From the NCBI GenBank assembly GCA_965231085.1, contig OZ246413.1, positions 91,991 to 155,990 of the forward strand: a DNA stretch of 64,000 nucleotides, read 5' to 3'. A program made the position numbers and the translations under genes. This DNA comes from an uncultured Candidatus Saccharibacteria bacterium (lineage in GTDB: Bacteria; Patescibacteriota; Saccharimonadia; Saccharimonadales; UBA10212). The notes below the pieces were generated by a model that was given only the letters and a program-made list of their open reading frames with translations, did not search any database and was not told the origin of the DNA. Position 1 is the first letter of the stretch; every line of letters starts with the position of its first letter. Positions 10,222-46,000 of the stretch are shown here, in pieces.

Positions 10222-11004
10222 ATGAAATCTCTAAAATTTGATCATAAACAAGCTACTCTTGTGAAGAGAGGTGAAAAGACAGCCACGTGGCGCGTTTTTG
10301 ACGATAAGGATCTGCGAGTTAACGATATTGTGTCTATTATTGACAAAGTTGACCCAGAAAAGCCCGAGACTTGGGTATCAATAGGGACGGCCACCATTAC
10401 TCAGGTCTTAGAGAAAAACCTAGAAAACGTTACTGAGCAGGATATGGTTGGTTACGGAGAATATAAAACAGAAAAAGAAATGATCAACACGTTTAGAAAG
10501 TACTACGGTAATTCGGTGAGTGGTTCTACTCCAGTAAAAATCATTTATTTTGACTTTGAGGCCGCTAAGCCCACCCAAGCTACCAATATAAGTCTGACTG
10601 ACGCCAAAATCTTTACCGACGGCGGCTCTCGTGGCAATCCTGGGCCTTCGGCCTGCGCTTATGTAATCTGTAATATGGACGATACTGTTGTAGAAAAGTC
10701 AGGAACCTATCTAGGCCTTTCTACTAATAACAGGGCCGAATATCAAGGTTTGAGGCAGGGATTGGAGCGAGCTAGGGACCTAGGGATTGAAAAGGTAAGA
10801 ATTTTCATGGACAGTCAGCTAGTTGTCAACCAGGCCAAAGGGCTCTATAAAGTGCGTAACGTAGATCTAATAGCAGTCCATCAAGAAATTTTGGCTTTGG
10901 CTAAATTATTTAAGTCCATTAGCTTCAACTATATTCCACGGGAACTGAACAAGATTGCTGATGCAGAGGTTAACCATATCCTTGATGAGCAAAATAGGGT
11001 ATAA
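10222..11004 (+). CDS. rnhA: ASCH-like N-terminal domain fused to RNase HI
   Basis: The C-terminal half (IFTDGGSRGNPGPSACAYVI...NNRAEYQGL...MDSQLVVNQ) is type 1 RNase H. The N-terminal ~110 aa look like an ASCH/PUA-like beta-barrel. Confidence 0.78.
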   Translation: MKSLKFDHKQATLVKRGEKTATWRVFDDKDLRVNDIVSIIDKVDPEKPETWVSIGTATITQVLEKNLENVTEQDMVGYGEYKTEKEMINTFRKYYGNSVSGSTPVKIIYFDFEAAKPTQATNISLTDAKIFTDGGSRGNPGPSACAYVICNMDDTVVEKSGTYLGLSTNNRAEYQGLRQGLERARDLGIEKVRIFMDSQLVVNQAKGLYKVRNVDLIAVHQEILALAKLFKSISFNYIPRELNKIADAEVNHILDEQNRV

Positions 11005-23342: not shown

Positions 23343-23452
23343 GAATGAAGATTTTTTGGGGTCTAGTTTAATGTGCTCTCAAAAATGTCCATTGAAAATT
23401 GAATAGTGCAAATCAACGTCAGTTCGAAAATCTGAAGTTAATATCAGATTCT

Positions 23453-25013
<1,561 letters not shown>

Positions 25014-25294
25014 AGGGAGAAACTAGCATTAAGGCAGAGCAATCTACTTAAGAGCTAGGTCGATCTCGATAAGTTTTACCAGTACTGAAAACTTATTTTC
25101 CCCGCACTTACGATGCAGTAAAGTTCCTACCGGACTTTAACTGTTATCAAACAAAGTCTCTAGTAAATAGATTTTGTCAAAGCTGCAGTCACAATAACGT
25201 TAGTTATTGTCTGTATCGTAAGTGCGGGGCGGGAAACAGTACTAACAATCATTGGCTGACGTTGAGATGCACTATTCAGAGTTCAATAAAAGAC

Positions 25295-25324
25295 ACCCGT
25301 CTAGGTATAGGCGGGTTGTTTTTT
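25295..25324 (+). terminator. Terminator-like hairpin between the 16S gene and tRNA-Ile
   Basis: 9-bp stem acccgtcta/tataggcgggt (one G-U pair), loop ggta, then tgttttttat. Confidence 0.45.
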
Positions 25325-25371
25325 ATAGGGGTATTGAGGTACAATAACTCCGTTACAAATCCCAATAACAG

Positions 25372-25448
25372 GGGGCTATAGCTCAGCTGGTTAGAGCGCG
25401 TCACTGATAATGACGAGGTCTGTGGTTCGAGTCCACATAGCCCCACCA
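25372..25448 (+). tRNA. tRNA-Ile (anticodon GAU), CCA encoded
   Basis: ggggcta...cgtca-ctGATaa-tgacg...tgtgg-ttcgagt-ccaca-tagcccc-a-cca. Confidence 0.95.
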
Positions 25449-25468
25449 CGTGCTAAGATTTAAATTAC

Positions 25469-25545
25469 GGGGACATAGCTCAGCTGGCTAGAGCACCTGC
25501 TTTGCAAGCAGGGGGTCCGGGGTTCGAATCCCCGTGTCTCCACCA
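25469..25545 (+). tRNA. tRNA-Ala (anticodon UGC), CCA encoded
   Basis: ggggaca...cctgc-ttTGCaa-gcagg...cgggg-ttcgaat-ccccg-tgtctcc-a-cca. The G3-U70 identity pair is present. Confidence 0.95.
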
Positions 25546-25578
25546 TCATGGTAATGGTTATCATTACCGAATATCTAA

Positions 25579-25607
25579 AACGACCTCTATAGACGCGGTC
25601 GTTTTTT
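25579..25607 (+). terminator. Intrinsic terminator after tRNA-Ala
   Basis: Stem aacgacc/ggtcgtt, an 11-nt loop, then tttttt. Confidence 0.6.
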
Positions 25608-25671
25608 GTTTGTCCGGACATCTACCTAATACATCTGTTGGCACGGGGTTCGTTCCCGCTTCGTGTCTTTT

Positions 25672-26235
25672 CTACGAGAAGATTTTATGGAGCTCGGCTG
25701 TCGTTAAGCCACAATCTGAAGCCGTTTTGGCTATCAAGGCCAGAATGGACGCGACATCTTTTACTGCGCCTAATCCCGACTTCACTTTATCTATGAACTT
25801 ACGCTCCTTTGACCCTGGGTTGAAGGAGTTCTGCTTTGTGGCAAGTATGTCGGTTATGTCGACTATGAGTGTTTGAGTAACAGCAACCTCTTGGGTTACA
25901 GTGACTTGGTTTGTGGGCGAGTGCGATGGTGCGTAATGCGGTTCTTTTTCCTTCAAGTAAGAAGCTCCAAGCCACGCAACTAAACCACTGGCCGAAGTTT
26001 TTAGGTCGATTGTGCTAGCGGTTCTTTCTTGAGGGTTGTAGTTCTGTATATACGGAAGAAATCTATTTAGATCTTCCTGCAACAGGCTCGATAGGCTGGA
26101 AACTATATGTTCGTATTGCGTAACCGGACCGTTATATATCCGATCCGAGGCACTGGGCTCTCCAAGCCCGTATAGCAAACCCCGAAGTTCTTCATATAAG
26201 GCATTTACTTTACTGTAGATTGCTTCTTCTTCCAT
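25672..26235 (-). CDS. Hypothetical protein (187 aa) inside the rRNA spacer, antisense to the rRNA genes
   Basis: An intact ORF for which I recognise no family. It is predicted to be helical. Confidence 0.5.
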   Translation of the reverse strand: MEEEAIYSKVNALYEELRGLLYGLGEPSASDRIYNGPVTQYEHIVSSLSSLLQEDLNRFLPYIQNYNPQERTASTIDLKTSASGLVAWLGASYLKEKEPHYAPSHSPTNQVTVTQEVAVTQTLIVDITDILATKQNSFNPGSKERKFIDKVKSGLGAVKDVASILALIAKTASDCGLTTAELHKIFS

Positions 26236-26269
26236 TTCTTATATTATATAGCCTTTCAATTAATAGTCA

Positions 26270-26617
26270 TCATCGTGTAAGGCTTGGCCTTAAGACATAT
26301 CTTCCGTGCCCGACTCTTAGGTACTTCGAGTTCGGCCCCATGGAGTTGGCGCTCAGGCACTGCTTGATGGTGCCCCAGACGATCGGATGACCTAGTCTCT
26401 GCTCGCAGGCCAGGTGAATCTCCTTGGCCCTCATGGCTCCGACGGAGCCAGAGAGTACCTCGTACACGGTCTGATAGATCTCGCCAGGGCGGGGCTTTAC
26501 GGCTGCCGGCTTGATCTCTGAGCTGGTCTTGGCCAGTAGACCAGACACTCGTTTCGTGCTATCTTGAATCTCAAGTTCTACTCGAGGGTTCGAAAGTGCC
26601 CCCATTAGTTCCACCAT
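26270..26617 (-). CDS. Small winged-helix (HARE-HTH-like) DNA-binding protein, G+C-rich
   Basis: 115 aa. EIYQTVYEVL...MRAKEIHLACEQRLGHPIVWGTIKQCL...YLRVGHGRYVL resembles wHTH domains that end in RVGRGxYxL. Hand-counted G+C is 58-63 percent in the lines covering 26341..26520. Confidence 0.5.
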   Translation of the reverse strand: MVELMGALSNPRVELEIQDSTKRVSGLLAKTSSEIKPAAVKPRPGEIYQTVYEVLSGSVGAMRAKEIHLACEQRLGHPIVWGTIKQCLSANSMGPNSKYLRVGHGRYVLRPSLTR

Positions 26618-27009
26618 AAAAAGGACTTCTCAAAACGAAGTCTTTTTTAGTTTTAGGCCTACCTTATGCTAAAAGATGAATTACTTAGGGGCTAAATCGT
26701 AGAGTTTTTGACATTAGTTTTAGCTTTACAACCCCTGTTAATCTTGCTAAGATTACAGCTGAAGTTTGAGTGCGGCCAGTCGGCCAGTTGAGGGAAAATC
26801 ACAACGGCTAGTCCTCTGGGCTTACTCAAACACTCTTTTGCCAACAATCTATTGATTATCGGTGGAGTGAGTTAGCTTGCAACCTTAACAATTAATCGCA
26901 AAACATGAGAAAGCAAATGACAGACAGCGAATTGGTGAAAACCAATAGCTAGTCAATTGCACAATTAACCGACTCTAGTAAGTCTTTAGATTTACTAGGG
27001 TTGATATCG

Positions 27010-30366
<3,357 letters not shown>

Positions 30367-30646
30367 GAACCAGAATATGTACGCCCGTTAAACGGTGTGC
30401 GTTTTCTGGGAAGAGTGCATTGACTAGCTTTTGGTGATCATCTATACTCACTTAACAACAGTTAAAAGAGATAGTTGGCTCACAAAGTTGTTTGCTTAAC
30501 AACATGTAGTGCGATTAAACACGTGCATTTGGTTGCCGATGCAGCCAAGCCTTCCCCCATCGGGATGAGTAGCCCGACAAAATGTATTCCATTTTGCCGG
30601 CGCGATGAGAAAACCCCCGAAGGGGCTTCTCATAAGGCTTTGCCGC

Positions 30647-30760
30647 ATCGGTGCCCATGGCGCTGGGGAAACACCTGTTACCATTCCGAACACAGCAGTT
30701 AAGCCCAGCAGCGGTTACAATACTTGGGTTTTAGCCCTGGGAAAATAGCACGGTGCCGAA
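30647..30760 (+). rRNA. rrf: 5S ribosomal RNA
   Basis: Helix I pairs tcggtgcc with ggtgccga. The internal ccattccgaacacagcagttaagc matches the conserved 5S loop B/C region. Confidence 0.85.
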
Positions 30761-30769
30761 TTATAGTGA

Positions 30770-30795: not shown

Positions 30796-31021
30796 CTTAT
30801 TATCAAGATTTTATTACGCGATTATTTACAGCAGGCTGTGGATAAACATAAACATAATTGTAATGTAAACAACAGTTAGAATAAATAATTAACTCAGCAT
30901 ACAATCCTCTCCTTACACCCCCTATATAGGATTAATTGACATATAACGTTATAAAAAAGTCTACAAAATATAGATAAATTAAACCGGACAACTAACTCCT
31001 TAAAAGTCACGGTTTTTCTCC

Positions 31022-31050
31022 TTGACTCTGTCACGCTAAATAACCATAAT
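31022..31050 (+). promoter_or_regulatory. Putative sigma70 promoter of giant gene 1
   Basis: TTGACT (31022..31027), a 17-nt spacer, then CATAAT (31045..31050). The same hexamers and spacing recur upstream of giant gene 2. Confidence 0.55.
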
Positions 31051-31087: not shown

Positions 31088-34000
31088 ATGGCACGCCAAA
31101 AAACAAAAATTTGCCTTTCGTGTAACCAGCTTTTTCGAGGTAGGCTGGATGCAAGAACCTGTTCGGAGCGGTGCCGTAAGCGTTTACAGAGAGCAAAGCT
31201 GCTAGTTGAACAAGAAGCTTCTGCAATTAAATCAGCTACTACGAATATAATTTCTGAGGTTGAGAATAAACTAACACCTTTCGCAACTGAGGAGGGGTTT
31301 GTCGGTGAATCACAGACTATAGCTACCACCCCATCACCTCAGTCGACTACTCAGCCGGCTATAGCTCAGTCACCGGTGATGCAGTCCCAGCCATCTGTGC
31401 AGCAACCTAGTGTTAACCCAGTTTCTCAGGCGCAAATACCAAGTGAGCCGATTTCTAGTTCTGTTACAACACCAACCCCTCAAACATTAATAGCGCCAAG
31501 CCCTATTCCAGTTGCGCAGCCACCAAAGGTAGAAACAGAACCGTTAGCGGTCTCATCTAGCCCGGTTGTTATCCCTCCGAGTCTAGAAAGCCCCCCCAAG
31601 GAGCCAACAACTCCATCCTCTGCGGTGCTCACTAAAAATGCCGAAGACTCCTTGGAGTTTATCCCTGCACAGACTGCCTCAGTTAGTTCACCGCTAGATG
31701 TTGCTACCCCGACAATCTTTGGCAATACCTATAGCCCTACAGCTACTCCTCGGACAGTAGAGGTTGCTCCACTAGGGCAAGGCGCACCTGCCCGACCTAA
31801 CTTGTCGAGCCCAATTCGCCCCTCCTCAATCCTCCCACCAGAGGCACCAAAGCCTCCTAAACCTCGGATGCCTAAGATCAACTTTCCATCTTGGGCTAAG
31901 ATGGCCATTGCTTCGACTGTGGTAATTTCGGCAGTAGCTATCGGTACATATCTCTTGGGCAACCAAAATGCCCAAACTAAAGTAAGTAACCAAACCACCA
32001 CCAATGCAGTTGCAGGGCAAGATGTTTTACCCTCAGGCTCTAACGTAACAAGCCTACACTTCAATAAAGCCGTCACCATAGATCAAGGGGCCAGCTTTAC
32101 TGCAACAGGCCCGTCAACATTTAAAAATCTAGCTAATTCGGCAGACGCATTTAATGTTCAAGCAGCCGATGGCACTAATCTGATAGCCGTTAATACTATT
32201 ACCGGTCTTGTAACTATAAACGGTATTCAAGGTTCGGGTGCATTGCTGACCAGTATTAACGCATCCAATATTACTAGCGGGACCCTGTCTAATTCACGGT
32301 TAGCTAGCAATGTAACACTGCTTGGTAATACCTTTAACGGGGCTAGCCAACTAGTCCAACTCAATTCGTCAGGGGCTATACCGGTGTTGGATGGTGCAAA
32401 CTTAACAAATGTTAATGCTCTCAGCCTACAAGGCAACGGTGCTAGCTACTACACCAACGCCAGCAATATAATTTCCGGGACGCTCAGTGACGTTCGATTA
32501 AGCACAAATGTAACACTGCTAGGCAATACCTTTAACGGAGCGGATCAACTAGTTAAATTAAACGGAATCGGCGGATTACCAGCTCTGAATGGTAGTCTGT
32601 TAACTAACCTGGACGCTTCTAACGTAAGCCTCGGAACTCTTAGTGATAGCCGTTTAAGCGCAAATGTCGCTCTACTTAATGGCACCGGCCCTCAAACTTT
32701 TACAGGTAGTAATAAGTTTACTGGCCCGACAGTATTCCAGACACTAACTAATGCTACTAATGCCTTCCAGTTGCAAAACCAGGCAGGGAACAACAACCTC
32801 ATAGTAGGCGACACCATAAACACTCGAGTTGGTATAGGCGTTGCAGCACCAAACTACACACTTGATGTTAACGGTGATGCCAACCTGGCCAACGGCCAAG
32901 CTTATCGTATTAACGGCGTAGCTGTTTGTACTAACGTTGGCTGTAACCCAAGTGGTGGGTCTAGCAGTTATGTCCAGGTTCAAGCCTCAACTCCTGGGTC
33001 TGCACAAACTGGTAATTCAAACATTACTGGCACAGCTATAGCTGGGTCGTTCTCGGGCTCTGGTTTAGGCTTAACCAACTTGGATGCTTCTCAGGTTGCT
33101 GCGGGTACCCTTAATGACTTGCGTTTGTCGGCCAATGTAACTCTTCAGGGCAATAACTTCAACGGCGCTAGCCAGCTGGTTCAAACAACTGCTTTAAGCT
33201 ATCTACCAGCGCTCAATGGCTCGCTACTCACCAACTTAAACGCTAGCAACATAGCTACGGGCACAATAGGTGACGCCCGGTTATCTGCTAATGTTGGATT
33301 ACTAAACGGTAACCAAACATACAGCGGCAACAATACTTTCTCTGGTAGCAATACCTTCAATAATGTAATTGTGGCCCCTGGCATTCAAACTACTAATACT
33401 GGCCACATAATAAACGTTGCATTCACCGGCACAGCCAGCGGCGCTTTGACCTATAACTTTGACGTAGCAGCTACCCCCGGAACCTATACTATCTGTACCT
33501 CCGTGGGCAACTGTTCTGGCGTAGGCGGAGGAGTTACCACCAGCGGCGGCACAATTAATAAAATTGCCAAGTTCAGCGGTTCACAGACTCTAGCTGACTC
33601 AATAATTACAGATAATGGCACGACAGTCACAATAGCTGGTAACCTCGCCGCCAACACAATTACCCAAAACGGCAATACTGTCTGTGACGTTGGCGGCAAC
33701 TGTGCCGGTGTTGGCGGGCAGGTGGGCACCTTCGGTACACCTACTGCCGGTACGATTGCATTGTTCCACGGCTCGGCCACTATAGAGAACTCAATTCTTA
33801 CTCAGTCTGCCGGTACCGTAACTGCGGGCGGTAACTTTAACGTAACTGGCAATTATCAAGTAAACGGTGTGCAGATAACTAGCGCTGTTTTGAGTAACGA
33901 TGCCAACATAGCTAAATTAAACGGCAACCAGACGTTTACTGGTAACCAAACATTCACTGGCACAGTGTTAATCCAGCCAGCCGTTGATAGCACTAGTATA

Positions 34001-37000
34001 TCGGTTATCCAGAATCACGCCGGAAACAGTAACCTATTTATTGCTGATACCAGCAATACCAGAATTGGTATAGGCAAATTGCCAGCCTACACGCTTGATG
34101 TAAACGGAGATATTAATGTGTCTACCGGCGGTTCTTACCGTATTAACGGTACTGCCATTTGTGGACCATCAACTACTTGTGCACCAAGCTCCGGCAGCAC
34201 TTCCTACATCCAAAACTCTGTAGCTCAGCAGACTAGCGCTAACTTTAACATCCAGTCTACAGCTACTGGATCGGTAGTGGGCGTATTGCAAGGTAAGAGC
34301 GGGCAGACAGCCGATCTTCTGCAAGTTAAGGATGGTTCGGCCAATACAGTATTATCAGTAGGTAACCAAGGCCAAACAATCTTTAAAGATAGTTCCGCCG
34401 GCTCGGCTACCTTCTTCCAGGTCCAAAATTCCTCCAGCGTATCTTTGCTTACGGCTAATACTACAACCGGTCAAATCTTACTGCCTAACGCAACTTTAGC
34501 CAGTACTGCACTATTGATTGGCGGCGACGCAAATCTGTACCGCTCAACTGCCTCTACTCTAAAGACTGATGGGAATGCGATAGTAGCCGGCGCAACAACC
34601 TCACTGGGCATATTGAACGCTAATGCTACGGGTAAAACAGCAATTACTATTGCGGACTCTGGTGCTCAAAACTCCGGCCTTACCATTGGGGGCGATACCA
34701 ACCTGTATCGCAGCGCTGCTGGTATACTCTCGTCAGACGCATCGAGCTTAAGACTTCAGTCCGGCACCAATACTCTCTACCTTGGATCTAATGGCTCGCA
34801 TATCTTGGGCGACCCATCCAATACTACTTTAGCCTTCGGAGGAAGCCTATATATTCAGAATGCCGCAGAGAGTGTGACCTATGGCAAATGGAACGCTACC
34901 GGGCTAGCCTTAGGTGGTAATGTTGCTGCAACTTCACAGCTGATGCTTGTATCCGATGCAGGCACAGCCGCCAGTGGTATAAAATTTGGCTCAACGGGCG
35001 ATACCAGCGTCTATAGAACAGCCGCTGGCTCACTGGCCGTTCAGGGCACCTCAAACTCCTCTACAGGCTTCCAAGTACTCAACTCAACAGGTACAGCCGT
35101 CCTGGCAGCCGATACCACCAACCAACAAATTAATGTAACTAACCTCCAATCCACTGGCTCCATTAGCCTACAAAACTCCCAAGGCGCCTCAATCCAACTA
35201 AGAACCGTATCTTCCTCCTCAACCGGCCTAACAGTCTCAGGCAATGAACTAACTGACAAAACTAGATCTACATCTACCCAAGGCGATGGCCGCCAAGCCC
35301 CAGACAGTAGCACGGGGGTGTGGGAAGGGACGACGAACTTAGCACCACTAGGTGGTGCAGAGAGCGCTATCTCACAATATTATCTAAACAACCAGAGTAT
35401 GACCATATCCAGAACCAGTGAAGTCGCTAAGTTTGGCACATATTCATTTAAAGCAGTTGGCAATGGTTCTGGTACTCAGTCTGTTGAGTGGCGAGGCGAT
35501 AATGTAGGCACGAGAGTAGCAGTTACGGCTGGTCAAACCTATACCATGTCCTTATGGGAGAAATCTTTGGCTAGCTATGCGAAAACACCAATACTCAATG
35601 TTGTTTACTACGATAACGGCGGTTCGATTATCCAAAACACTAATACCAGTGTTACTGTGCCCAGTCCTACAAGCTGGACTAGAGTTTCGTATACTACAAC
35701 AGCTCCAGCCAACGCCGTTAGCGTACGTCTAATATGGACCGTTCAAACCGTTGGAGCAGTAGGGGAAACATATTACTTTGATGGCGTACAATTCGAAAAT
35801 AAAGCTTACGCCACCCCTTATGTAGAGACAAATTTAGCTACGGCCAGCCGAACCGCGGCTGTTGTGACTGCACCTTCTGCTAATCTGAATACCACACAGG
35901 GTTGGGTTGCTGTAAGGTTCCGAGCAGGAGTGCCAAGTGGTATATCTGGCGGAAATGGAATTATCTCTTGGCGAGCTGACTCCAGCAACTATATTGACCT
36001 TTATTACAATGCTACATCTGGAACGAAGTGGAACGCTCGTCGGTCGGCAAGCAGCGGAACGATTAATGACGTTAATATTAGTAACTCCATTGCTGTTGGT
36101 GATCTAGAAACTGTTGTCTTTGCCTGGACTTCAACCCAGCTTATGCTAAGTGTTAATGGCTCTGCCTTTACAACCGCCTCGGATACGGCAATACCTTCTG
36201 GAATGCCAGCTACATTCAAGATAGGGCAGGGCGATGGCGGTGTTGGCAATCTTGACGGCGACATACTATGGATGGCTAGCGGCACTGGCACTCTAGCCAA
36301 CGCCGATGCTACAACTCTAAACGCCTACGGTAGTTCTGACCCAACACTATCAGGACTTGCATCACTAAACTCTGGTGCATCTTCCCCAGCTTTTGCTTGG
36401 GACGGAGTAGATACCAAATACTCTGGGACAAATGCTAGCTATGTTAACCAGTCTGGCATTGCAATTGATGATGTTAGCCTGACTCACTCGGCCAATGGCT
36501 CGTTAACACTGCAGGGTGCAGTAAACTCCACCACTGGTTTCCAGATACAGAACTCCTCAGCTACAGCACTTCTTACAGCAGACACCACAAACATGAGAAT
36601 ATCTGTTGGATCTATTGGTACAGCTACTGGGCAACTGTTTGTGGGCGGTAGACTGGCCGCAAGCAATACAAGTAGCGTTGCATACACGGGAGCTTATGCC
36701 CTCACAGGGCAGGGCAGTTATATATATGCGGTTGGGGGAAGTACGCTAAAAGTTTTGGACGCTTCTAGTCTTGCAATTGTAGGTTCCGTATCTACTAGTA
36801 CTGGTCCCCAAGCGGTTGCGGTAAGCGGTAAGTACGCCTACGTTGGAACAGGCAGCGGAGGAGGTAATAAATTTGAAGTTTATGATATTAGCAATCCATC
36901 AACACCAGTTAGTAAAGCATCAATCAGTACATCCCTTAGCTCTATCCTGGATATTAAGGTGCAGGGTAACTATGCGTACGCCGTCAGTCAGTCTGCAGCT

Positions 37001-39763
37001 ACAATGCAAGTTTTCAACATTAGCAATCCATCAAATCCGGTGTCTGTAGCAACATACACAACAGCAAGTTCAAACTTGCTGAAGATAAACATTCTGGGCA
37101 AATATGCATACATCGCTGGGTACAATACTAATAAGCTAGAAGTGGTTGATATATCTAATCCATCCTCACCAGTAAGTGCTGGTAACTTTACATTAAGCAC
37201 AGGTATTCCATATGGTTTAGCAGTACAAGGAAGGTACGCTTACATTGACGGAGGAACGGCCTTCCAGGTAGTAGATGTGTCCAACCCAGCTAGTATGAGC
37301 AGTGTTGCAACAACCACATCAGGGTCCAACCCGCTAGCCTTATATGCTCAAGGCAGATACGTTTATGCCGTTGATTACACGGACGCTTTAATAAAAGTTT
37401 ATGATGTCTCAACTCCGTCAGCCCCAACAGCTCAGGGCACAATTAGCACTGGTGCAAGTTCTGGGCCAAATTCGCTCTATGTACAAGGACGCTATGCCTA
37501 TGTAGCTAATAATGGAGGCAACACGGTGCAGGCTTACGACTTAGGTGGGGCATACGTACAGCAACTCGAAGCGGGCGGGGTAGAAGCAAGCACAATCCAG
37601 GTTGATAGTAGCCTTAAGGTTAACGGTGACACTAACATGCAAGGGGGGCTGAGTGTAGGCCAGAATCTACAGGTTAGTGGTAATATTGGCGCTAGTGGTG
37701 CAGCCTTGTTCCAGAATTCCACTAATTCAACCACTGCTTTCCAGATACAAAGTTCTACAACTACCTCTCTATTCAATGCAGACACGGCAGGCATGAACAT
37801 AACTCTAAATGGGGCCAATAATGCAGAAATTGGAAGTTGGGCAACTAACGCTAACTCCTTACCAGCAGCCCGAGAGCACGTAGCTACTGTTACCGCCAAC
37901 GGATATGTTTATGTGATGGGTGGTTGGTTAAGTGGCGCGCAATCCACCGTCTACTACGCCAAACTTAATACTGATGGCTCAACCGGTGCCTGGACGACCA
38001 GCTCTAACCCACTACCTTTAGCAAGAGCTAGGGCTCAGGCAACTGCGTACAACGGCTATGCCTATGTGCTAGGAGGATATGACGGTTCTTCTGCTGTAGC
38101 TACCGTCTACTACGCCAAACTAAACAGCGACGGTTCTACCGGCAGCTGGGCGACTAACACCAACGCTCTGCCAGCGGTTCGAACCTATGGTAGCGCAGTT
38201 GCCTATAACGGATTTATCTATATGGTTGGCGGTGATAACGGAACTGTAACCGGCCAATCCACCGTCTACTACGCCAAACTTAATGCTGATGGCTCAACCG
38301 GTGCCTGGACGACCAGCGCTAACCCGATAACCTCAGCTCGTATGGGGCACTCCTCGGTGGTTGCCAATGGTTACCTTTATGTACTAGGCGGAACTACTGG
38401 AGCCGACAACGCCATTACTAACACTGTTTATTATTCTAAGTTGAATAGCGATGGTTCAAATGGTTCTTGGAGTAGCACTAACACTATGCCAGCCAGCCGA
38501 GGTTATGGGGCGGCGGCTACAGTTAATGGGTACGTTTACTACCTGACTGGTTTTGACACCGGGAGTAATCCTAACTCTGGTATCTACTACGCCAGACTTA
38601 ATTCTGACGGCTCAACTGGCTCCTGGTCAACGTCGGCCAATTCTGCTACAACGGCTCTTGGAGCCTACCCAGGGGCAGCAGTCTCGAACGGCTACATCTA
38701 TCTGATCGGTGGTCGGGCCGGGTCTACTCAAGCTACCGTCTACTATACCTCTACCTCCCGTATCAAAGTGGGCGGATCGCTTGATCTGGTTGGCCTTGGC
38801 GGGCAAAATCTAAACGAAGGGAACACAGGCGGCTCAATAACGGCGGGGAACATAGCAGCCGTAGGATCGTTGCAGGTGCAAGGGGCTGCCAGCTTTGCAC
38901 AGGCCTTAAGTGTTAACGGAAGTATTAACGTGGCTGGCAGTGCGCTGTTCCAAAATGCGGCAAACTCAACTACCGCCTTCCAGATACTTAATGCTGCCGG
39001 AACCAGTATCCTAACAGTGGACACCTCTACAAGCGGTGGGGTCATAACCCTTGGCTCAGCCAGCTCTACCCCAGTTATATTAGTGCTTGGTAATAAGAAT
39101 ACTTCAGGCGACCCAACCTGTACTGACGGGGCAGTTTACTACAACTCTAATTCCACGCAAATTCGGGGATGTGTAAATGGCGCCTACAATAACATAGGCG
39201 GAGACAATGTAGTTACAGCCATCCCAACTACAAATCTATATGATGGTAGGAAAGTAAAGCTTCGAGCTGGCTCATCGCCTTATGATTTCGTTAGCTTGAC
39301 ATACGATGCTACCTACGGGAAATGGGTTTCGGATGAATCAGTAGCTATCGATACACCACAACAGCAAACAGCGACAGGGGCGCCAGGCGATACATCAATA
39401 TCGTATAGCGTTTTCTGGAAACCATACATAGATGCCGGATTAATCCCGCAGTTAAGGATGACCGGTCTTACGAATCACGATGCGACATCCACAAGCTCAG
39501 AATTAGGTTGGACGGCTCGACATGTTAGCGATTATGACTATGCTGCATCCGTACCAGATGATCTCACGACTATCATGACAACGTACGAGCAGCGCGCCCA
39601 AACAACTGCAAATAAATACGTTGGCATGAACATAAATTGGACAACGGTAACAAAACCAGCAACGCCAAAGGATATATTGTTAGTGAATATTTATGCGGGA
39701 GCCTCAGCTGGCGGGACACTATCCTATAGGGCTACGATATCGATACGTTGGGTTAGCCAATAG
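31088..39763 (+). CDS. Giant surface protein 1 (2891 aa). Domain order: cytoplasmic C4 zinc ribbon, P-rich linker, TM anchor, tail-fibre-like stalk, CBM4/9-like, LamG-like, 7 LVIVD repeats, 6 Kelch repeats, C-terminal tip
   Basis: A single uninterrupted ORF. The motifs were read from the translation (see findings). Confidence 0.85.
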   Translation: MARQKTKICLSCNQLFRGRLDARTCSERCRKRLQRAKLLVEQEASAIKSATTNIISEVENKLTPFATEEGFVGESQTIATTPSPQSTTQPAIAQSPVMQSQPSVQQPSVNPVSQAQIPSEPISSSVTTPTPQTLIAPSPIPVAQPPKVETEPLAVSSSPVVIPPSLESPPKEPTTPSSAVLTKNAEDSLEFIPAQTASVSSPLDVATPTIFGNTYSPTATPRTVEVAPLGQGAPARPNLSSPIRPSSILPPEAPKPPKPRMPKINFPSWAKMAIASTVVISAVAIGTYLLGNQNAQTKVSNQTTTNAVAGQDVLPSGSNVTSLHFNKAVTIDQGASFTATGPSTFKNLANSADAFNVQAADGTNLIAVNTITGLVTINGIQGSGALLTSINASNITSGTLSNSRLASNVTLLGNTFNGASQLVQLNSSGAIPVLDGANLTNVNALSLQGNGASYYTNASNIISGTLSDVRLSTNVTLLGNTFNGADQLVKLNGIGGLPALNGSLLTNLDASNVSLGTLSDSRLSANVALLNGTGPQTFTGSNKFTGPTVFQTLTNATNAFQLQNQAGNNNLIVGDTINTRVGIGVAAPNYTLDVNGDANLANGQAYRINGVAVCTNVGCNPSGGSSSYVQVQASTPGSAQTGNSNITGTAIAGSFSGSGLGLTNLDASQVAAGTLNDLRLSANVTLQGNNFNGASQLVQTTALSYLPALNGSLLTNLNASNIATGTIGDARLSANVGLLNGNQTYSGNNTFSGSNTFNNVIVAPGIQTTNTGHIINVAFTGTASGALTYNFDVAATPGTYTICTSVGNCSGVGGGVTTSGGTINKIAKFSGSQTLADSIITDNGTTVTIAGNLAANTITQNGNTVCDVGGNCAGVGGQVGTFGTPTAGTIALFHGSATIENSILTQSAGTVTAGGNFNVTGNYQVNGVQITSAVLSNDANIAKLNGNQTFTGNQTFTGTVLIQPAVDSTSISVIQNHAGNSNLFIADTSNTRIGIGKLPAYTLDVNGDINVSTGGSYRINGTAICGPSTTCAPSSGSTSYIQNSVAQQTSANFNIQSTATGSVVGVLQGKSGQTADLLQVKDGSANTVLSVGNQGQTIFKDSSAGSATFFQVQNSSSVSLLTANTTTGQILLPNATLASTALLIGGDANLYRSTASTLKTDGNAIVAGATTSLGILNANATGKTAITIADSGAQNSGLTIGGDTNLYRSAAGILSSDASSLRLQSGTNTLYLGSNGSHILGDPSNTTLAFGGSLYIQNAAESVTYGKWNATGLALGGNVAATSQLMLVSDAGTAASGIKFGSTGDTSVYRTAAGSLAVQGTSNSSTGFQVLNSTGTAVLAADTTNQQINVTNLQSTGSISLQNSQGASIQLRTVSSSSTGLTVSGNELTDKTRSTSTQGDGRQAPDSSTGVWEGTTNLAPLGGAESAISQYYLNNQSMTISRTSEVAKFGTYSFKAVGNGSGTQSVEWRGDNVGTRVAVTAGQTYTMSLWEKSLASYAKTPILNVVYYDNGGSIIQNTNTSVTVPSPTSWTRVSYTTTAPANAVSVRLIWTVQTVGAVGETYYFDGVQFENKAYATPYVETNLATASRTAAVVTAPSANLNTTQGWVAVRFRAGVPSGISGGNGIISWRADSSNYIDLYYNATSGTKWNARRSASSGTINDVNISNSIAVGDLETVVFAWTSTQLMLSVNGSAFTTASDTAIPSGMPATFKIGQGDGGVGNLDGDILWMASGTGTLANADATTLNAYGSSDPTLSGLASLNSGASSPAFAWDGVDTKYSGTNASYVNQSGIAIDDVSLTHSANGSLTLQGAVNSTTGFQIQNSSATALLTADTTNMRISVGSIGTATGQLFVGGRLAASNTSSVAYTGAYALTGQGSYIYAVGGSTLKVLDASSLAIVGSVSTSTGPQAVAVSGKYAYVGTGSGGGNKFEVYDISNPSTPVSKASISTSLSSILDIKVQGNYAYAVSQSAATMQVFNISNPSNPVSVATYTTASSNLLKINILGKYAYIAGYNTNKLEVVDISNPSSPVSAGNFTLSTGIPYGLAVQGRYAYIDGGTAFQVVDVSNPASMSSVATTTSGSNPLALYAQGRYVYAVDYTDALIKVYDVSTPSAPTAQGTISTGASSGPNSLYVQGRYAYVANNGGNTVQAYDLGGAYVQQLEAGGVEASTIQVDSSLKVNGDTNMQGGLSVGQNLQVSGNIGASGAALFQNSTNSTTAFQIQSSTTTSLFNADTAGMNITLNGANNAEIGSWATNANSLPAAREHVATVTANGYVYVMGGWLSGAQSTVYYAKLNTDGSTGAWTTSSNPLPLARARAQATAYNGYAYVLGGYDGSSAVATVYYAKLNSDGSTGSWATNTNALPAVRTYGSAVAYNGFIYMVGGDNGTVTGQSTVYYAKLNADGSTGAWTTSANPITSARMGHSSVVANGYLYVLGGTTGADNAITNTVYYSKLNSDGSNGSWSSTNTMPASRGYGAAATVNGYVYYLTGFDTGSNPNSGIYYARLNSDGSTGSWSTSANSATTALGAYPGAAVSNGYIYLIGGRAGSTQATVYYTSTSRIKVGGSLDLVGLGGQNLNEGNTGGSITAGNIAAVGSLQVQGAASFAQALSVNGSINVAGSALFQNAANSTTAFQILNAAGTSILTVDTSTSGGVITLGSASSTPVILVLGNKNTSGDPTCTDGAVYYNSNSTQIRGCVNGAYNNIGGDNVVTAIPTTNLYDGRKVKLRAGSSPYDFVSLTYDATYGKWVSDESVAIDTPQQQTATGAPGDTSISYSVFWKPYIDAGLIPQLRMTGLTNHDATSTSSELGWTARHVSDYDYAASVPDDLTTIMTTYEQRAQTTANKYVGMNINWTTVTKPATPKDILLVNIYAGASAGGTLSYRATISIRWVSQ
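35096..35337 (+). repeat. 242-nt tract identical, apart from one synonymous mismatch, to 44347..44588 in the paralogous gene
   Basis: Base-by-base comparison. The only difference is G35317 versus A44568. The flanks drop to roughly two-thirds identity. Confidence 0.95.
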
Positions 39764-39970: not shown

Positions 39971-40006
39971 AGTGAGACAAAAAACACCTTACGTGTCTCA
40001 CTTTTT
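39971..40006 (+). terminator. Terminator-like hairpin between the two giant genes
   Basis: Stem agtgagac/gtctcact with a 16-nt loop, then ttttt. It lies immediately upstream of the -35 box of gene 2. Confidence 0.45.
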
Positions 40007-40010
40007 CTCC

Positions 40011-40039
40011 TTGACTATGATTACATCTGTAACCATAAT
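40011..40039 (+). promoter_or_regulatory. Putative sigma70 promoter of giant gene 2
   Basis: TTGACT (40011..40016), a 17-nt spacer, then CATAAT (40034..40039). Confidence 0.55.
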
Positions 40040-40089
40040 TAGTGTTAGTTAATCGAACAAAAAAATTAACAAAAACAAATAAACAAAAA

Positions 40090-43000
40090 ATGGCTCGCCA
40101 AAAAATAAATACCTGTGTTTCCTGTAATCGGCTTTTTAAGGGCCGGTTAGATGCACGTACTTGTTCCGGAGCTTGCCGCAAACGTATCCAGAGAACAAGG
40201 CTAGCAGCCGAGCGCGAGGCTCTTGCATTAAAAAAAACGGTCGAAGATATTGTTGCGGCTGTTGAAGATAGAGTAATACCGTTTGCAACCGAAGAGGGGT
40301 TCGTTGGTGAGTCTGCTCTACCAGCTACCAGCTTACCAGCGCAATCTGTTTCATCTCGACCGATTGAACCTACTAGTGTTACACCAGTTCAGACTGCCTC
40401 CAACCCAGTTGTTAATCTGCCCCAGGCTAATATCCAGGAAACAACTCCGCCCAAAAGTCCGGTAATAGAGCAAATAGTTATGCCGCCGCAGCAACAAATA
40501 CCAACTCCTGCGGCCATTACCTCAAATTCGCAGCCAGCCACAGAAGAAACCCTAGAATATCCCCCGCACAGTTTTTTACCGGCTACCCCTGGAACCACTT
40601 TTCAGCCTACGGTTTCCAGCCCAGCTCCAGATATAACCTCTGGCTCAAGGGTTGAGCCAAACCTAGCAGTTAGCCAGCCAAGATATAATTCTAGTTCTGA
40701 CTTACCACAAGGCCCAGACTCATCCTTTTATCAAGCTTCGGCTCAACCAGGTATTTCGCCATCTAATCTATTATCATCTGAAAATCAGTCGAGATCTCAG
40801 GGGGCTAGGTTTGGTATCCCAGTTTGGGCTAGGATGGCCATTGTATCAACTCTATTAGTTTCCACTGTTGCCATTGGCACCTACTTACTAGGGAACCAAT
40901 CAGCACAAAATAAACTTAATAACCAAGCAAGCACTAGCACCACTGTTGCTGGCCAGGACGCGTTGCCCTCAGGCAGTAATGTTGAGAGTTTGCACTTTAA
41001 CAAAGCCTTAACTATCGACCAAGGAGCGAGCCTTACGACCACAGGAACTGCAACGTTTAAAAATCTGACTAATTCTAGCGATGCATTCAATGTGCAAAAG
41101 GCAGACGGCACTAAGTTAATCACCGTCAATACGGACACCGGAGTGGTAACAATTGCAGGTCTTCAGGGCTCAGGCACAGACCTAACTAACTTAAATGCCT
41201 CCAAACTTACTACCGGTACAGTTTCTGATGCTCGGTTAAGCACCAACGTAGCTTTATTAAATGGCACAGGCCCACAAACATTTACTGGAGACAACAGATT
41301 TGGCGGTGCAGCCTCGGTTCAGGGGGCCACAACATTAAATAACACGCTTACCGTTAACGGAAGTTCAGCATTTTTGAGCAGCTTACTATTAAAAAATGCC
41401 TCTGATTCTACTACTGCCTTCCAAATTCAGAATTCTGCTGGCACGAGCAACCTATTTGTAGCCGACACAACGAATACCAGAGTGGCTATTGGTCAGTCTG
41501 CAGCTGCCTATACCTTAGATGTTAACGGGAACGTAAATGTTACTGCTGGTAATACTTTTAAAATAGCTGGCACAGATATATGTTCGGCGTCTGGATGTAC
41601 GAGCGCCTCTAACTCAAACTACTACATACAGAACAGTACAGTTGTTCAGTCGGCTAACTTCGCTATACAGAGCTCTGCTGCTAGTAGCGTCGCAGCGGTA
41701 ATAAAAGGTGCAGTCAGCCAAACAGCTGATTTGTTACAGATTAAAGATGCCAATAACAACAGTTTGCTGACAGTTGGCCCTAGCGGCAGTACTTTAATTC
41801 AGACTCCAACTAACTCCACTACCGCCTTTCAAGTCCTCAACAACAACGGTACCTCACATTTAATAGTGGCTGACACCCTTAATGCTAGAGTAGCCATCGC
41901 CCAGCCAACTGCCAACTACGCCCTAGATGTAGGAGGCGACATTAATTCCACCACGGGTATACGAGTTGGTGGCAACCTGGTCTGCGATACGGTAAGTTGT
42001 ACTCCAGCTCCAGGTTCTGGCAGCTACATCCAAAATACTACTTCACTACAAACAGGCAACTTTGCTATACAGTCTGACTTAAATTCTCACATAGTCGCTA
42101 AGTTCAGAGGCGCCAGCGGCCAGAGCGCCGATTTAATCCAGGCTATCTCCGGCGACGGGGGTAGTACGGTTCTGAGTGTTGGGGCAACAGGGAATACGGT
42201 CTTTAGAACTGCCAGCGGCTTTGACTCAGCTACAGCATTTCAGGTGCAAAATGCGGCAGCTTCCCCAGTGTTCGGCGTTGATACGGTCAGCGGCAGGGTT
42301 GGCATAGGAACCAACGCACCAAATACATCCTTGCAAATAACTAATTTTTCGGATGCCAAGATTAGACTTCAAGGTTCAGCCTACGATACGCTTGTTTTCA
42401 ACAATGGAGCAACCGAAGAAGCTTACCTGAATTATGATATTGCCGGGACAACAGTAAACTTGTGGACTAACAATCGTAATCTTAGCATACTGCCAACTGG
42501 AACGGGCAAGGTAAGTATTGCCGGGACTCCTGCTAACAGCGTCTTAACAGTCGGTACTAATACTACCGCGGCCACAGGGGGCATATATTTTGGGACGGAT
42601 ACGAATCTCTATCGTTCCGCAGCTAGTACCTTATTTACAGACGGTGGGTTAACGGTAAATGGTACTCTACAAACTAAGAGCGATCTTACGGTTAGACAGG
42701 GCAATTCAACTCAACAACTGGTCATTGGTGCTGTAGGACCTTCTGGCCAGTCTGGTCTGTGGCTCCAGAACGGTGAGGCTGGCAGTAACCTTTATCGTTC
42801 TGCTGCGGGGGCTCTTAAGACCGATGGTGCTCTCACCGCCGTTGGGAATATTCAGGCAGCACGGTTTGAGGCAACTAGTTCCAGCTCCGACATGTTTCTT
42901 GTGCAGAGCGCAGACAGTGGCTCTAGATTACTGCTTTCAGCAAGAGTTAGTGGAGGAGCTGCCAATATGTTCTCTGCTAGAGTCAATGGCCAGCTGCTCT

Positions 43001-46000
43001 GGGGAGATGGGACAGCGGCCCAAGATACTAATCTTTACCGCTCGGGTTCAAACGCGCTAACGACCGACGGCGCGCTTACCGTTGCGGGCCGCATAACCGG
43101 CAGCAGCGACCTAATACTATCCGGTAACCCAGCTGGCGGTAAGTTCTTGCAGCTTACTGGCAGTAACTCTACTATGGGCGGTGGTGCTGGCGGTGGTATA
43201 AATATTGCTTACAGTGCTGCCGCTGGCGGGGTTGGCACAATAGACAGACCTATACTCATAGCTGATTCAATCGCCAGCAGCGTTTCGGTGCCAAATCGTT
43301 ATGCAATATATGAATCCAATATCACGGTGGGTTCGGGCGGGTCGCTAACCAATAACTATGGTTTATATATGGAAAACCAAACCGCTGGTACCAATAACTA
43401 CGGTATTTACTTACAGGGTGCCAGCACGGCTACTGTCCAACTGGCTTCCGATGCCGGCACAGCTGCCAGCGGTATTAGTTTTGGCTCGGCTGCTGATACT
43501 AATCTTTATAGATCAGCGGCAGATACTCTAAAAACCAGTGATAGTTTCATAGTTGGCACTAACTTTACAGCCAATGGCACGGTACTAGTTCAAAATGCAT
43601 CTAATTCCACTACTTCCTTCCAAGTGCAGAATGCTGCCGGCTCACCAATCTTGAATGTAGACACTACAAACAAGCGGGTTGGCGTTGGTCTAGCAGCCCC
43701 GCTTGCGCCCCTACACGTTCTCAACGGTACGGCCGGTGCTACGTTTACGCCCGTAACAGATGAAACAATTGTGCTTCAAAGAAATCAGAATACCAATGAC
43801 AACGCGGTGCTTACACTAATTTCTGGTTCAGTAGGCGAAACCATAATACGCCTAACCAGTGCTGGCAATACGGAGTCAGGTAAAATTGGCTACAACAACA
43901 ATACGAGGACTTTATATTTCTTTACTAACGGCAGCCAAAAACTATCTCTCGATACCAACGGCACAATAGCTCTTACTGGCGGACAAACCAAAGATATAAC
44001 AACGGCTTCTGCCGGGACTTCAGCAGCCTTAGTCTTTGCCCCGGGTGACAGTACTACAAACTCTGGCACTGGTTCATCACTAACTTTGCGAGGTTCAAAC
44101 CAAACTGGTACTACTTCCGTTGGCGGCAATCTTGTCTTGCAGGGCGGAACAGGCACTTCTACCAATGGTCAAGTTCAGCTTGGTACCGCTAATACCAGCG
44201 CCATATCATTAGGTGCAAGCGGAATATTGACCACGAACAATGGTTCACTAACAGTTACACAGAACCTAACAGCTAACGGCACCGTTCTAGCCAAAAACGC
44301 CACCGACTCCTCTACCGCCTTCCAAATCCAAAACAGCAACGGAACCGCCGTCCTGGCAGCCGATACCACCAACCAACAAATTAATGTAACTAACCTCCAA
44401 TCCACTGGCTCCATTAGCCTACAAAACTCCCAAGGCGCCTCAATCCAACTAAGAACCGTATCTTCCTCCTCAACCGGCCTAACAGTCTCAGGCAATGAAC
44501 TAACTGACAAAACTAGATCTACATCTACCCAAGGCGATGGCCGCCAAGCCCCAGACAGTAGCACGGGAGTGTGGGAAGGGACGACGAATTTAATTACCAA
44601 TGGTGGACTGGAGACGGATCTTACAAACTGGAGTGGACAATCAAATGTTACGCTGGCGCGCACCACTGCAATTAGCAAGTTTGGAACTGCCTCAGCCCAG
44701 GCTTCCACCACTAATGGTGGTGCTCAGAACGCAGTTCTTCTAACATCAACCAAGCCTGGGAGCAATGGGACGATGATATGGTCTTTCTGGGCTAAAACAT
44801 CGAGTGGAACAGGTTCTATAAACGTGGGCGCGTTGTCTGACAACGTGAGTTCTTTGACTGCGCTGGATGGATTATCCATAAACACTGCTTGGCAGCGTTA
44901 TCGTTTTTCATTCACTTTTACCAACGCAGCATCACCAAACATTAATCCATACATAGCTCTGGCTACTACGGGGATCAACTACTACTTTGACGGCATGCAG
45001 ATCGAGCAAAAAGCCTACGCTACACCTTATGTAGAAACTAACGGCGGTACTGCTAGCCGCAGCGCCGCAGCTGTTCAAGCTCCTGTGGCGGTTACAAACG
45101 CTACCCAGGGCTGGGTGGCAGTAAGGTTTAGAGCTGAATGGTCAGCCGATCCAGGCAGCACTGGCTATGAGTTGTTCGGATGGGCTGACAATAATACACA
45201 TTACTACAGTCTGTTTTATGGTACTGGCAATGGTAACAATCTTAATTTTGTCCGAGCTAACGGGTCGGGTGGGGCTAACGCCGACAAGGTCCAGCAGTCA
45301 TTTACACCGACCGTAGGCGGCTTAGTTACAGCAGTCGCCCGTTGGGACAGCGGCAATGTTTACCTTAGTGTAAATGGTGGAGCATTTGCTTCAGTTGCCG
45401 GAGCACACATTCCGACTTTGGCTGCATCCACCTTCTATATAGGTGGAGGTAGTGCGACAAATATTGGTCAAGCAGATGGCGAAACCCTGTGGTTCGCTTC
45501 CGGCACCGGCACCCTAACAAATTCTGATGCCACAACTCTCAATGCCTATGGCAATTCTGACCCAACAATTGCTGGTTTAACTTCTCTAAACTCTGGTGCT
45601 GCTACGCCGAGCTTTGCTTGGAGCGGAGTAGATGCTAAGTATTCTGGCACAAACGCTAGCTATGTTAGCCAATCGGGTATCTCTCTGGACGACACTACTC
45701 TATACCGCAGTAGCGCAAACACTCTTGCTAGTAATAACAATTTTCTACTACAGTCGAGTACCAACAGTGCGACTGCTTTTGTAGTGCAGGACGCCAATAG
45801 CAGTAGCTACCTAACCATAGATACGTCCGGGAGCAACATCTACCTTGGGGCTTATACGCCCGCAACGATTCAAATTGGTATAGCAAGCGGAAATGCTAGC
45901 GCTCAGACAATAAATATTGGCAATAATTCAACAGCTAGCTCATCGACAACTATTAATATCGGCTCAACGATTGGCACTAGCCCGTTAACCTTGCAGGGTG

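Follow-up and report, generated by a model that had tools for sequence, protein, structure and literature searches.

Probable recent gene conversion at the neck of two diverged giant genes in an uncultured Candidatus Saccharibacteria bacterium

The shared tract and its divergence from the flanks

The window, the whole stretch of DNA analysed here, comprises 64,000 nucleotides of contig OZ246413.1 (positions 91,991 to 155,990, assembly GCA_965231085.1) from an uncultured Candidatus Saccharibacteria bacterium. It holds two very large genes in tandem, termed gene 1 and gene 2, which are predicted from their sequences and from structural modelling to encode giant membrane-anchored surface fibres. 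The two share a short, nearly identical tract at the neck, the segment that joins a repetitive stalk to a head composed of a domain resembling a carbohydrate-binding module (CBM) and a LamG-like domain. The origin of this tract is the subject of the present analysis. The features concerned are as follows.

31088 to 39763, + strand: gene 1, 2891 amino acids, tandem paralogue of gene 2
40090 to 46710, + strand: gene 2, 2206 amino acids from the ATG at 40090; the listed open reading frame begins with GTG at 40042
35096 to 35337, + strand: tract copy 1, amino acids 1337-1417 of gene 1, covering the last stalk rungs and the conserved neck, LTVSGNELTDKTRSTSTQGDGRQAPDSSTGVWEGTTN
44347 to 44588, + strand: tract copy 2, amino acids 1420-1500 of gene 2, numbered from the ATG at 40090
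35312 to 36400, + strand: CBM-like and LamG-like module of gene 1; its limits are approximate and derive from alignment to gene 2
44563 to 45024, + strand: CBM4/9/22/16-like jelly-roll domain of gene 2 (model residues 92-245), beginning within the last 26 nt of the tract
45052 to 45624, + strand: LamG/concanavalin-A-like domain of gene 2 (model residues 255-445)

The two copies of the tract are 242 nt each, lie on the same strand at an offset of 9251 nt, and agree at 241 of 242 bases. Both are in codon phase 0 of their own open reading frames. The sole mismatch, G35317 versus A44568, falls at the third position of a glycine codon (GGG versus GGA) and is synonymous. Mismatches at 35095 and 35338 delimit the tract, and its length becomes 221 nt if the internal mismatch is taken as the true end. 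An earlier note, made from the sequence alone, had given these coordinates, the length, the offset and the single synonymous mismatch, and all are exactly confirmed. A repeat search of the entire 64-kb window found no other near-identical repeats. In a blastn comparison of gene 1 with gene 2, the tract is the only high-scoring segment pair above 78% identity, and three further short pairs are at 75-78%; several comparably identical tracts, as would be expected of generally high identity, are thus not present. The G+C content of the tract is 0.52, versus 0.48 for the genes. A minus-strand open reading frame of 178 amino acids (44175-44711) overlaps tract copy 2; it is probably an accident of composition, and nothing indicates that it is a gene.

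The homologous region of approximately 525 codons was aligned by codon (1575 nt) and scanned with a sliding window, and synonymous (dS) and nonsynonymous (dN) divergence were estimated by the NG86 method. The tract appears as an island of 99.6% identity and dS 0.016 in surroundings that are synonymously saturated. Background nucleotide identity in the sliding window is 0.35-0.55, and it is approximately 0.45-0.55 in the module flanks of the tract. At the protein level, the blocks around KAYATPYVETN and GTGTLTN…KYSGTNASYV are 70-80% identical between the two genes. Where residues are identical, the same codon is used in 25-65% of cases in these conserved blocks versus 100% within the tract. The NG86 values are listed below.

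Tract: dS 0.016, dN 0
Upstream flank: dS 1.67, dN 0.52
Downstream module: dS 2.63, dN 0.61
Conserved block GTGTL…KYSGTNASYV: dS 1.15, dN 0.20
Conserved block ATPYVETN: dS saturated, dN 0.31

Synonymous sites are saturated even in protein blocks of 75-80% identity, and therefore the identity of the tract is not due to protein constraint. A GENECONV-type run test is equally clear: the longest identical run is 221 nt, far above the maximum of 29 among 5000 column shuffles of the codon alignment. By an analytic bound, the chance of a 221-nt run is about 1e-62 at a background identity of 0.51, and about 1e-19 even assuming 0.80. Recent duplication of the whole module was also considered as a source of the tract and was rejected, as the flanks are saturated at synonymous sites.

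The earlier note had put the flanks and the N-terminal regions at about two-thirds nucleotide identity. This holds for the conserved N-terminal parts (0.67 over amino acids 1-75 and 0.66 over amino acids 266-415), but not for the N-terminal region overall (0.56, with 0.40 in the proline-rich linker) nor for the module flanks, where the values are those given above.

The neck-and-head module, its genes and its relatives

When the two modules of the window are aligned with 11 modules of a related locus (L001, see below), a common repeat unit emerges. The stalk motif DSTxAFQIQNxxGTSNL.VADT comes first, and is followed by the neck, LTVSGNE(I/L)TDxxRxxxTQGDGRxxPDSSxG(I/V)WE(G/A)TTNL. After the neck there is a variable domain, the motif YxDGxQxEQKxxATPYVETN, a second variable domain and finally GTGTLTNxDA…GNTDP. 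The tract consists of the last stalk rungs and the entire neck, and stops at …GVWEGTTN; relative to the tryptophan codon of WEGTTN, it runs from -225 to +16. At this point the CBM4/9-like jelly roll begins, followed by the LamG-like domain, as indicated by AlphaFold2 modelling, by Foldseek and by Pfam on a homologue (P0003). The location proposed earlier, at the junction between stalk and binding modules, is therefore borne out.

The AlphaFold2 model of the gene 2 module has a mean pLDDT of 79.6, with values of about 90 in the domain cores. It displays short beta rungs (residues 1-55), the jelly roll (92-245) and a second beta-sandwich (255-445). The neck itself (residues 55-90, window 44452-44559) is the least confident part of the model, with pLDDT 45-60, and yet is the most conserved (SGNELTD..R….QGDGR..PDSS). 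Perhaps the neck adopts its fold only on oligomerisation or on contact with a partner. In Foldseek, CBM4-2, CBM22 and CBM16 match the jelly roll (TM score about 0.7, E down to 1e-7), and laminin LG, neurexin and pentraxin folds match the second beta-sandwich (E 4e-5 to 3e-4); phage tail fibres are also among the matches. The window modules themselves give no Pfam match to CBM_4_9 or LamG, even at E = 1. Homologues at 35-44% identity do, with E 3.5e-11 for CBM_4_9 on P0003, and precomputed assignments of PF02018 (CBM_4_9) or PF13385 (Laminin_G_3) are present on many of them. The CBM/LamG identity of the heads is thus supported by the predicted fold and by the homologues.

The heads of the two genes are unlike each other. 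The protein identity of the CBM parts is below 0.34, and neither is among the six nearest heads of the other; that of the LamG parts is 0.50. Overall, the heads of genes 1 and 2 are no closer to one another than they are to heads from other genomes.

Each gene has one module of about 500 amino acids. In gene 1 the order from the N-terminus is a cysteine-rich motif, a proline-rich linker, a hydrophobic segment that is probably membrane-spanning, the repetitive stalk, the neck, the CBM-like and LamG-like module, LVIVD repeats, Kelch repeats and a C-terminal region. Gene 2 has the same anchor, a different stalk, the neck, the module and a short C-terminal region. The description of the binding modules as distal, made in the earlier note, does not fit gene 1, where the module is internal and is followed by approximately 1,040 amino acids that include the LVIVD and Kelch repeats. 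The four Kelch-type repeats of gene 1 (37940-38655, …TVYYAKLN.DGSTG.W…) show an irregularity of their own: between repeats 1 and 3, identity reaches 92% over 83 nt (37940-38022 and 38255-38337), whereas the other repeats are at 61-67%. This looks like a second, smaller homogenisation within one gene.

The N-terminal anchor is common to both genes (31088-32332 and 40090-41268) and has the form MARQK..C.SCN.LF.GRLDARTCS..CRKR.QR, followed by a proline-rich linker of about 200 amino acids and the hydrophobic segment. The cysteine motif C..C…C…C is possibly a zinc ribbon. No Pfam match to the anchor was found, and a protein search with it yielded weak, short matches only, one of them from Ca. Saccharibacteria (P0058). 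Upstream of the genes, a 44-nt repeat (30987-31030 and 39976-40019) is 77% identical between the two, and identical promoter-like sites are present.

31022 to 31050, + strand: promoter-like site of gene 1, TTGACT-17-CATAAT, overlapping the repeat 30987-31030
40011 to 40039, + strand: promoter-like site of gene 2, TTGACT-17-CATAAT, identical to that of gene 1

The shared upstream block and the identical promoter-like sites suggest that the duplication took in the regulatory region. As the -10 element of gene 2 ends at 40039, the ATG at 40090 is a likelier start than the GTG at 40042.

The window is chromosomal. An rRNA operon (23452-30761) lies directly upstream of gene 1, and the window also contains the RNase P RNA, seven tRNA genes, and gyrB/gyrA, infB, rpsA, fmt, def, priA, ftsA and ftsZ. 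Several other properties of the region may be recorded. The 23S rRNA match (27010-30367) spans 3358 nt versus a model of 2925 positions, i.e. there are insertions of about 430 nt, and an open reading frame antisense within the 23S gene (28985-29476) has no Pfam match. The spacer between tRNA-Ala and the 23S gene is 1.46 kb long (25546-27009) and contains a minus-strand open reading frame (25672-26235), also with no Pfam match. No intron family scored above the Rfam threshold in the rRNA region. The open reading frame at 10222-11004 is a fusion of ASCH and RNase H domains; its Pfam name, RVT_3 or 'reverse transcriptase-like', could lead to its being mistaken for a reverse transcriptase.

Close relatives of the two genes were not found in the collections searched. 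Exact-sequence look-ups of both proteins, with both starts of gene 2, returned no record; a 110-amino-acid tract peptide had no match among 5.8 billion proteins; queries containing the tract found no close relative of this genome among genome, metagenome and viral contigs; and phage genomes had no match to the tract in blastn. The module is more widespread. A profile search for it yielded 56 proteins. Among all protein matches, those with a named source (P0002 and P0058) are from 'Candidatus Saccharibacteria bacterium'. Among GTDB representative genomes there is only one relative, a Ca. Saccharimonadales metagenome-assembled genome (L001, JBEKOJ010000001). A second metagenome scan added 38 loci, of which about 13 have giant multi-module open reading frames at 0.48-0.52 G+C; the closest metagenome loci have this same G+C range, similar to that of the window genes. 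Taken by themselves, these matches and G+C values make a Saccharimonadales-type origin of the window probable. Four metagenome contigs (L017, L030, L037 and L039) end about 20-250 nt from a neck, possibly through assembly breaks induced by the repeats, but the search patterns lie in the neck, where short contigs must end nearby, and no conclusion is drawn from this.

In L001 (158-18793) a single open reading frame encodes more than 6211 amino acids and is open on the 5′ side of the locus. It contains 11 neck-CBM-LamG modules in tandem, each of 470-700 amino acids. These modules are mosaics, with conserved necks and ends and heads that are about 40% identical. Elsewhere, the same neck opens the module behind stalk proteins (P0002), prepilin N_methyl proteins of about 540 amino acids (P0003, P0005, P0006 and others) and phage tail proteins. 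P0018 (L042 10001-12727) is encoded directly after a 1302-amino-acid tape-measure-like gene in a capsid-tube-tail block. P0001 (L002 3099-5639) has two modules, matches a PHROG minor tail protein and is on a contig of 64% G+C that also encodes an SU10 adaptor. P0006 (L041 8001-9605; L041 is the same as L023) is type IV pilin-like and adjoins a Mu-type transposase on a 65% G+C contig. The contigs of all three are at 64-65% G+C, and the module start, SGNEITD…WE(G/A)TTN, is the same; by sequence comparison, the module is common to high-GC bacteria and phages and to low-GC Saccharibacteria-type giant proteins. At this G+C content, the pilin and phage versions are not demonstrably from Saccharibacteria.

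Lectin-like beta-jelly-roll minor pilins (PilX1) have been described in TM7x, and glycan-dependent host binding has been proposed for them (PMC11623550). Epibiotic growth is reported to require adhesins that have glycan-binding domains (PMC10633639). By analogy with these reports, the binding of host glycans by the heads encoded in the window is plausible but unproven.

Origin of the tract

The tract was very probably left by a recent ectopic gene conversion, short (221-242 nt) and non-reciprocal, between two tandem and anciently diverged paralogues. Recent conversion had been put forward in the earlier note, and the 99.6% island and its dS of 0.016 in a saturated background support it strongly. 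As the heads of genes 1 and 2 differ from each other as much as they do from heads of other genomes, the genes are mosaics of long standing whose necks were homogenised recently. No segment of the module is more conserved than the neck, which is hence the place where diverged copies keep enough similarity for strand invasion. The exchange would have been carried out by host homologous recombination, with strand invasion seeded at the neck, where protein constraint keeps the DNA sufficiently similar; its position would then have been set by prior conservation. The fall in similarity to about 45-50% on either side would stop extension of the heteroduplex. The resulting 242-bp direct repeat, in the same phase in both genes, may now itself be a substrate for deletion or duplication of the 9,251 bp between the copies. 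A crossover that deleted these 9,251 bp is predicted to leave an uninterrupted, in-frame stalk-1/head-2 open reading frame of 2123 codons, and an unequal exchange or duplication is predicted to add a stalk-2/head-1 gene of 2974 codons.

Is exchange at necks recurrent? A stretch of 304 nt, from -243 to +60 with respect to the tryptophan codon of WEGTTN, is 99% identical between modules 2 and 3 of L001, and identity in the CBM flank falls to 0.43-0.47. The pairs 5/7 and 4/6 have necks that are 0.77-0.90 identical and heads at about 0.35-0.5. This locus has a second tract, 440 nt long and 96.8% identical, which comprises the terminal part of modules 5 and 7 and runs into the beginning of the following neck. 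Among all 55 pairs of L001 modules, no protein block is better conserved than the neck (0.83-0.93), where the fraction of identical codons is also raised. Across 48 non-redundant modules, the ratio of within-locus to between-locus synonymous identity is 1.10-1.13 at the neck and module ends and 0.83-1.01 in the CBM/LamG cores. In other relatives, necks diverge normally at the DNA level: protein identity between the two necks of L003 is about 98% and DNA identity only 77-83%, and the L007 neck, the nearest to the tract of the window, has 75% protein and 68% DNA identity. An ungapped comparison of the two modules of the phage protein P0001 (L002) showed no identity island. Since most multi-module relatives have no such tract, conversion at necks is sporadic, not constant. 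Exchange takes place preferentially at necks but only now and then, and the conservation of necks is mostly a matter of ordinary protein constraint. Conserved necks look like preferred sites of homologous exchange, for which the position of the neck and one other genome provide modest support.

Several points weigh against a recent conversion between these two genes, or against its being part of a general pattern. Donor and recipient are indistinguishable, since there is no close outgroup in any collection searched, and both copies could have come from a third paralogue at another place in the genome. The tract is known from assembled sequence and not from individual reads. The within-versus-between excess at necks is small and is driven in part by L001, and among the multi-module loci only L001 has modules that share 80 nt or more at 90% identity or above, about a dozen related genes having no such stretch.

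The assembly itself may be questioned, as repeats of about read length are a classic problem for short-read assemblies and a collapsed consensus, a polishing error or a chimeric join could mimic such a tract. This is improbable here. The arrangement of two repeats with unique sequence before, between and after them has one linear path, and a misjoin should not be able to create the tract; the copies differ at one base and were thus resolved separately; the flanks, at about 50% identity, are too diverged for cross-mapping to homogenise the tract alone; and an equivalent island is present in the unrelated assembly of L001. Slightly less probable still is that the nucleotide sequence itself is under selection, for example as an RNA structure, internal promoter or binding site, and that this has kept the copies identical. 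The conserved position of the tract in the family and its slightly raised G+C content would fit such a role, but its RNA fold is no better than that of shuffled sequences (z = +0.34, with 129 of 200 shuffles folding at least as well), it has no plus-strand promoter-like or terminator-like site and no Rfam match, and the necks of L003 and L007 diverge freely at synonymous sites. Candidate phyla radiation (CPR) bacteria are rich in diversity-generating retroelements (DGRs), and the single difference, A in copy 2 versus G in copy 1, is in the direction expected if the copies were template and variable repeats of such an element. Nevertheless, only one of 77 adenines differs, and both copies are in frame in the middle of a gene and not at the C-terminus of a target with a C-type-lectin fold. 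No reverse transcriptase was found by Pfam among the tested open reading frames of at least 150 amino acids in the 64-kb window, a scan that omitted those antisense to or overlapping annotated genes and tRNA genes; the sole 'RVT' name belongs to the RNase H/ASCH protein at 10222-11004. A DGR is therefore the most remote of the explanations considered.

A different question is whether the tract is a working part and not a by-product, i.e. whether the neck is a recombination junction, maintained by selection or by frequent conversion, for moving CBM/LamG heads between stalks and thereby varying what the cell binds. The earlier note had raised this as well. It is consistent with the island of L001, which has the same place in the module although the Saccharimonadales genome is an independent one, with the further L001 pairs in which necks 0.8-0.9 identical stand beside heads at about 0.4, with CBM parts of genes 1 and 2 that are not mutual nearest relatives, with the same neck motif behind giant stalks, type IV pilins and phage distal-tail proteins, and with the in-frame chimeras that a crossover in the tract would yield. 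Against this, no swapped allele, deletion or duplication has been observed, and identity is limited to the neck, although a recent transfer of a head would leave identity across the head. Each of genes 1 and 2 is full-length and has a promoter-like site of its own, and silent cassettes are absent; neither a recombinase nor other dedicated machinery was found in the window; and about a dozen related multi-module genes have no near-identical tract. Moreover, conservation of the neck at the protein level explains why conversion would land there, with no need of selection for shuffling. The junction thus agrees with part of the evidence but is not demonstrated, and it is doubtful. A broader and still more tentative proposal is that the neck (SGNEITD…QGDGR…GIWEGTTN) is a portable homology block in Saccharibacteria-type episymbionts: repeated conversion would keep necks alike among stalk genes and tandem modules, and crossovers would reassort the heads and change the host glycans that are bound, with the head module also present in high-GC pilins and phage distal-tail proteins as the building block.

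On the preferred reading of a recent gene conversion, the tract matters by its location. It lies in the neck of a widely reused head module that is predicted to bind sugars, and the giant surface proteins that carry the module here belong to a lineage whose members live on the surface of other bacteria. Should exchange favour necks, reassortment of heads could be one route to an altered specificity of attachment. The 242-bp direct repeat leads to a prediction, namely in-frame stalk-1/head-2 deletions or three-gene duplications. For annotation and assembly, it is relevant that such genes carry internal repeats of about read length.

Comparison with known systems

Modular type IV pilins with lectin-type C-terminal modules include PilB of Streptococcus sanguinis (PMC8179133) and PilX1/PilX2 of Nanosynbacter lyticus TM7x (PMC11623550). 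In the pilin-like homologues of about 540 amino acids, a CBM_4_9 and LamG module with the SGNEITD…WEGTTN start follows a prepilin N_methyl domain. The window genes differ in having no N_methyl motif and in their length of 2200-2900 amino acids.

Tail-fibre and receptor-binding genes of phages are mosaic and recombine at conserved boundaries between shaft and head. The window genes resemble them in having a fibrous stalk and a predicted sugar-binding jelly-roll head, with a conserved neck and highly diverged heads, and homologous modules do occur in the phage tail proteins P0018 and P0001. Unlike phage fibres, they are chromosomal, located beside an rRNA operon and gyrBA among housekeeping genes and not in a prophage, and they have an N-terminal anchor with a hydrophobic segment.

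Cassette-type antigenic variation with conserved flanks is known from pilE/pilS of Neisseria, vlsE of Borrelia and msp2 of Anaplasma. The likeness is that conserved segments lie beside variable, ligand-exposed ones and provide homology for exchange. The window genes differ in that they are complete, with promoter-like sites and homologous N-termini, and no silent promoterless cassettes, variant alleles or dedicated recombination signal have been seen.

Ectopic gene conversion between bacterial paralogues is well represented by tufA/tufB in Salmonella and, among surface families, by opa of Neisseria and the MgPa repeats of Mycoplasma. The present case differs from these in that only one small patch is involved, about 3% of each window gene and at a domain boundary, and that the host is an uncultivated Saccharibacteria-type bacterium, in which recombination has been little studied. 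The properties in common are a short island of near-identity, synonymous sites included, between otherwise diverged paralogues of one genome, and direct repeats a few kb apart with exchange confined to the region of sufficient homology. The tract is a clean but ordinary case of gene conversion, a known process with a new example in a poorly known lineage.

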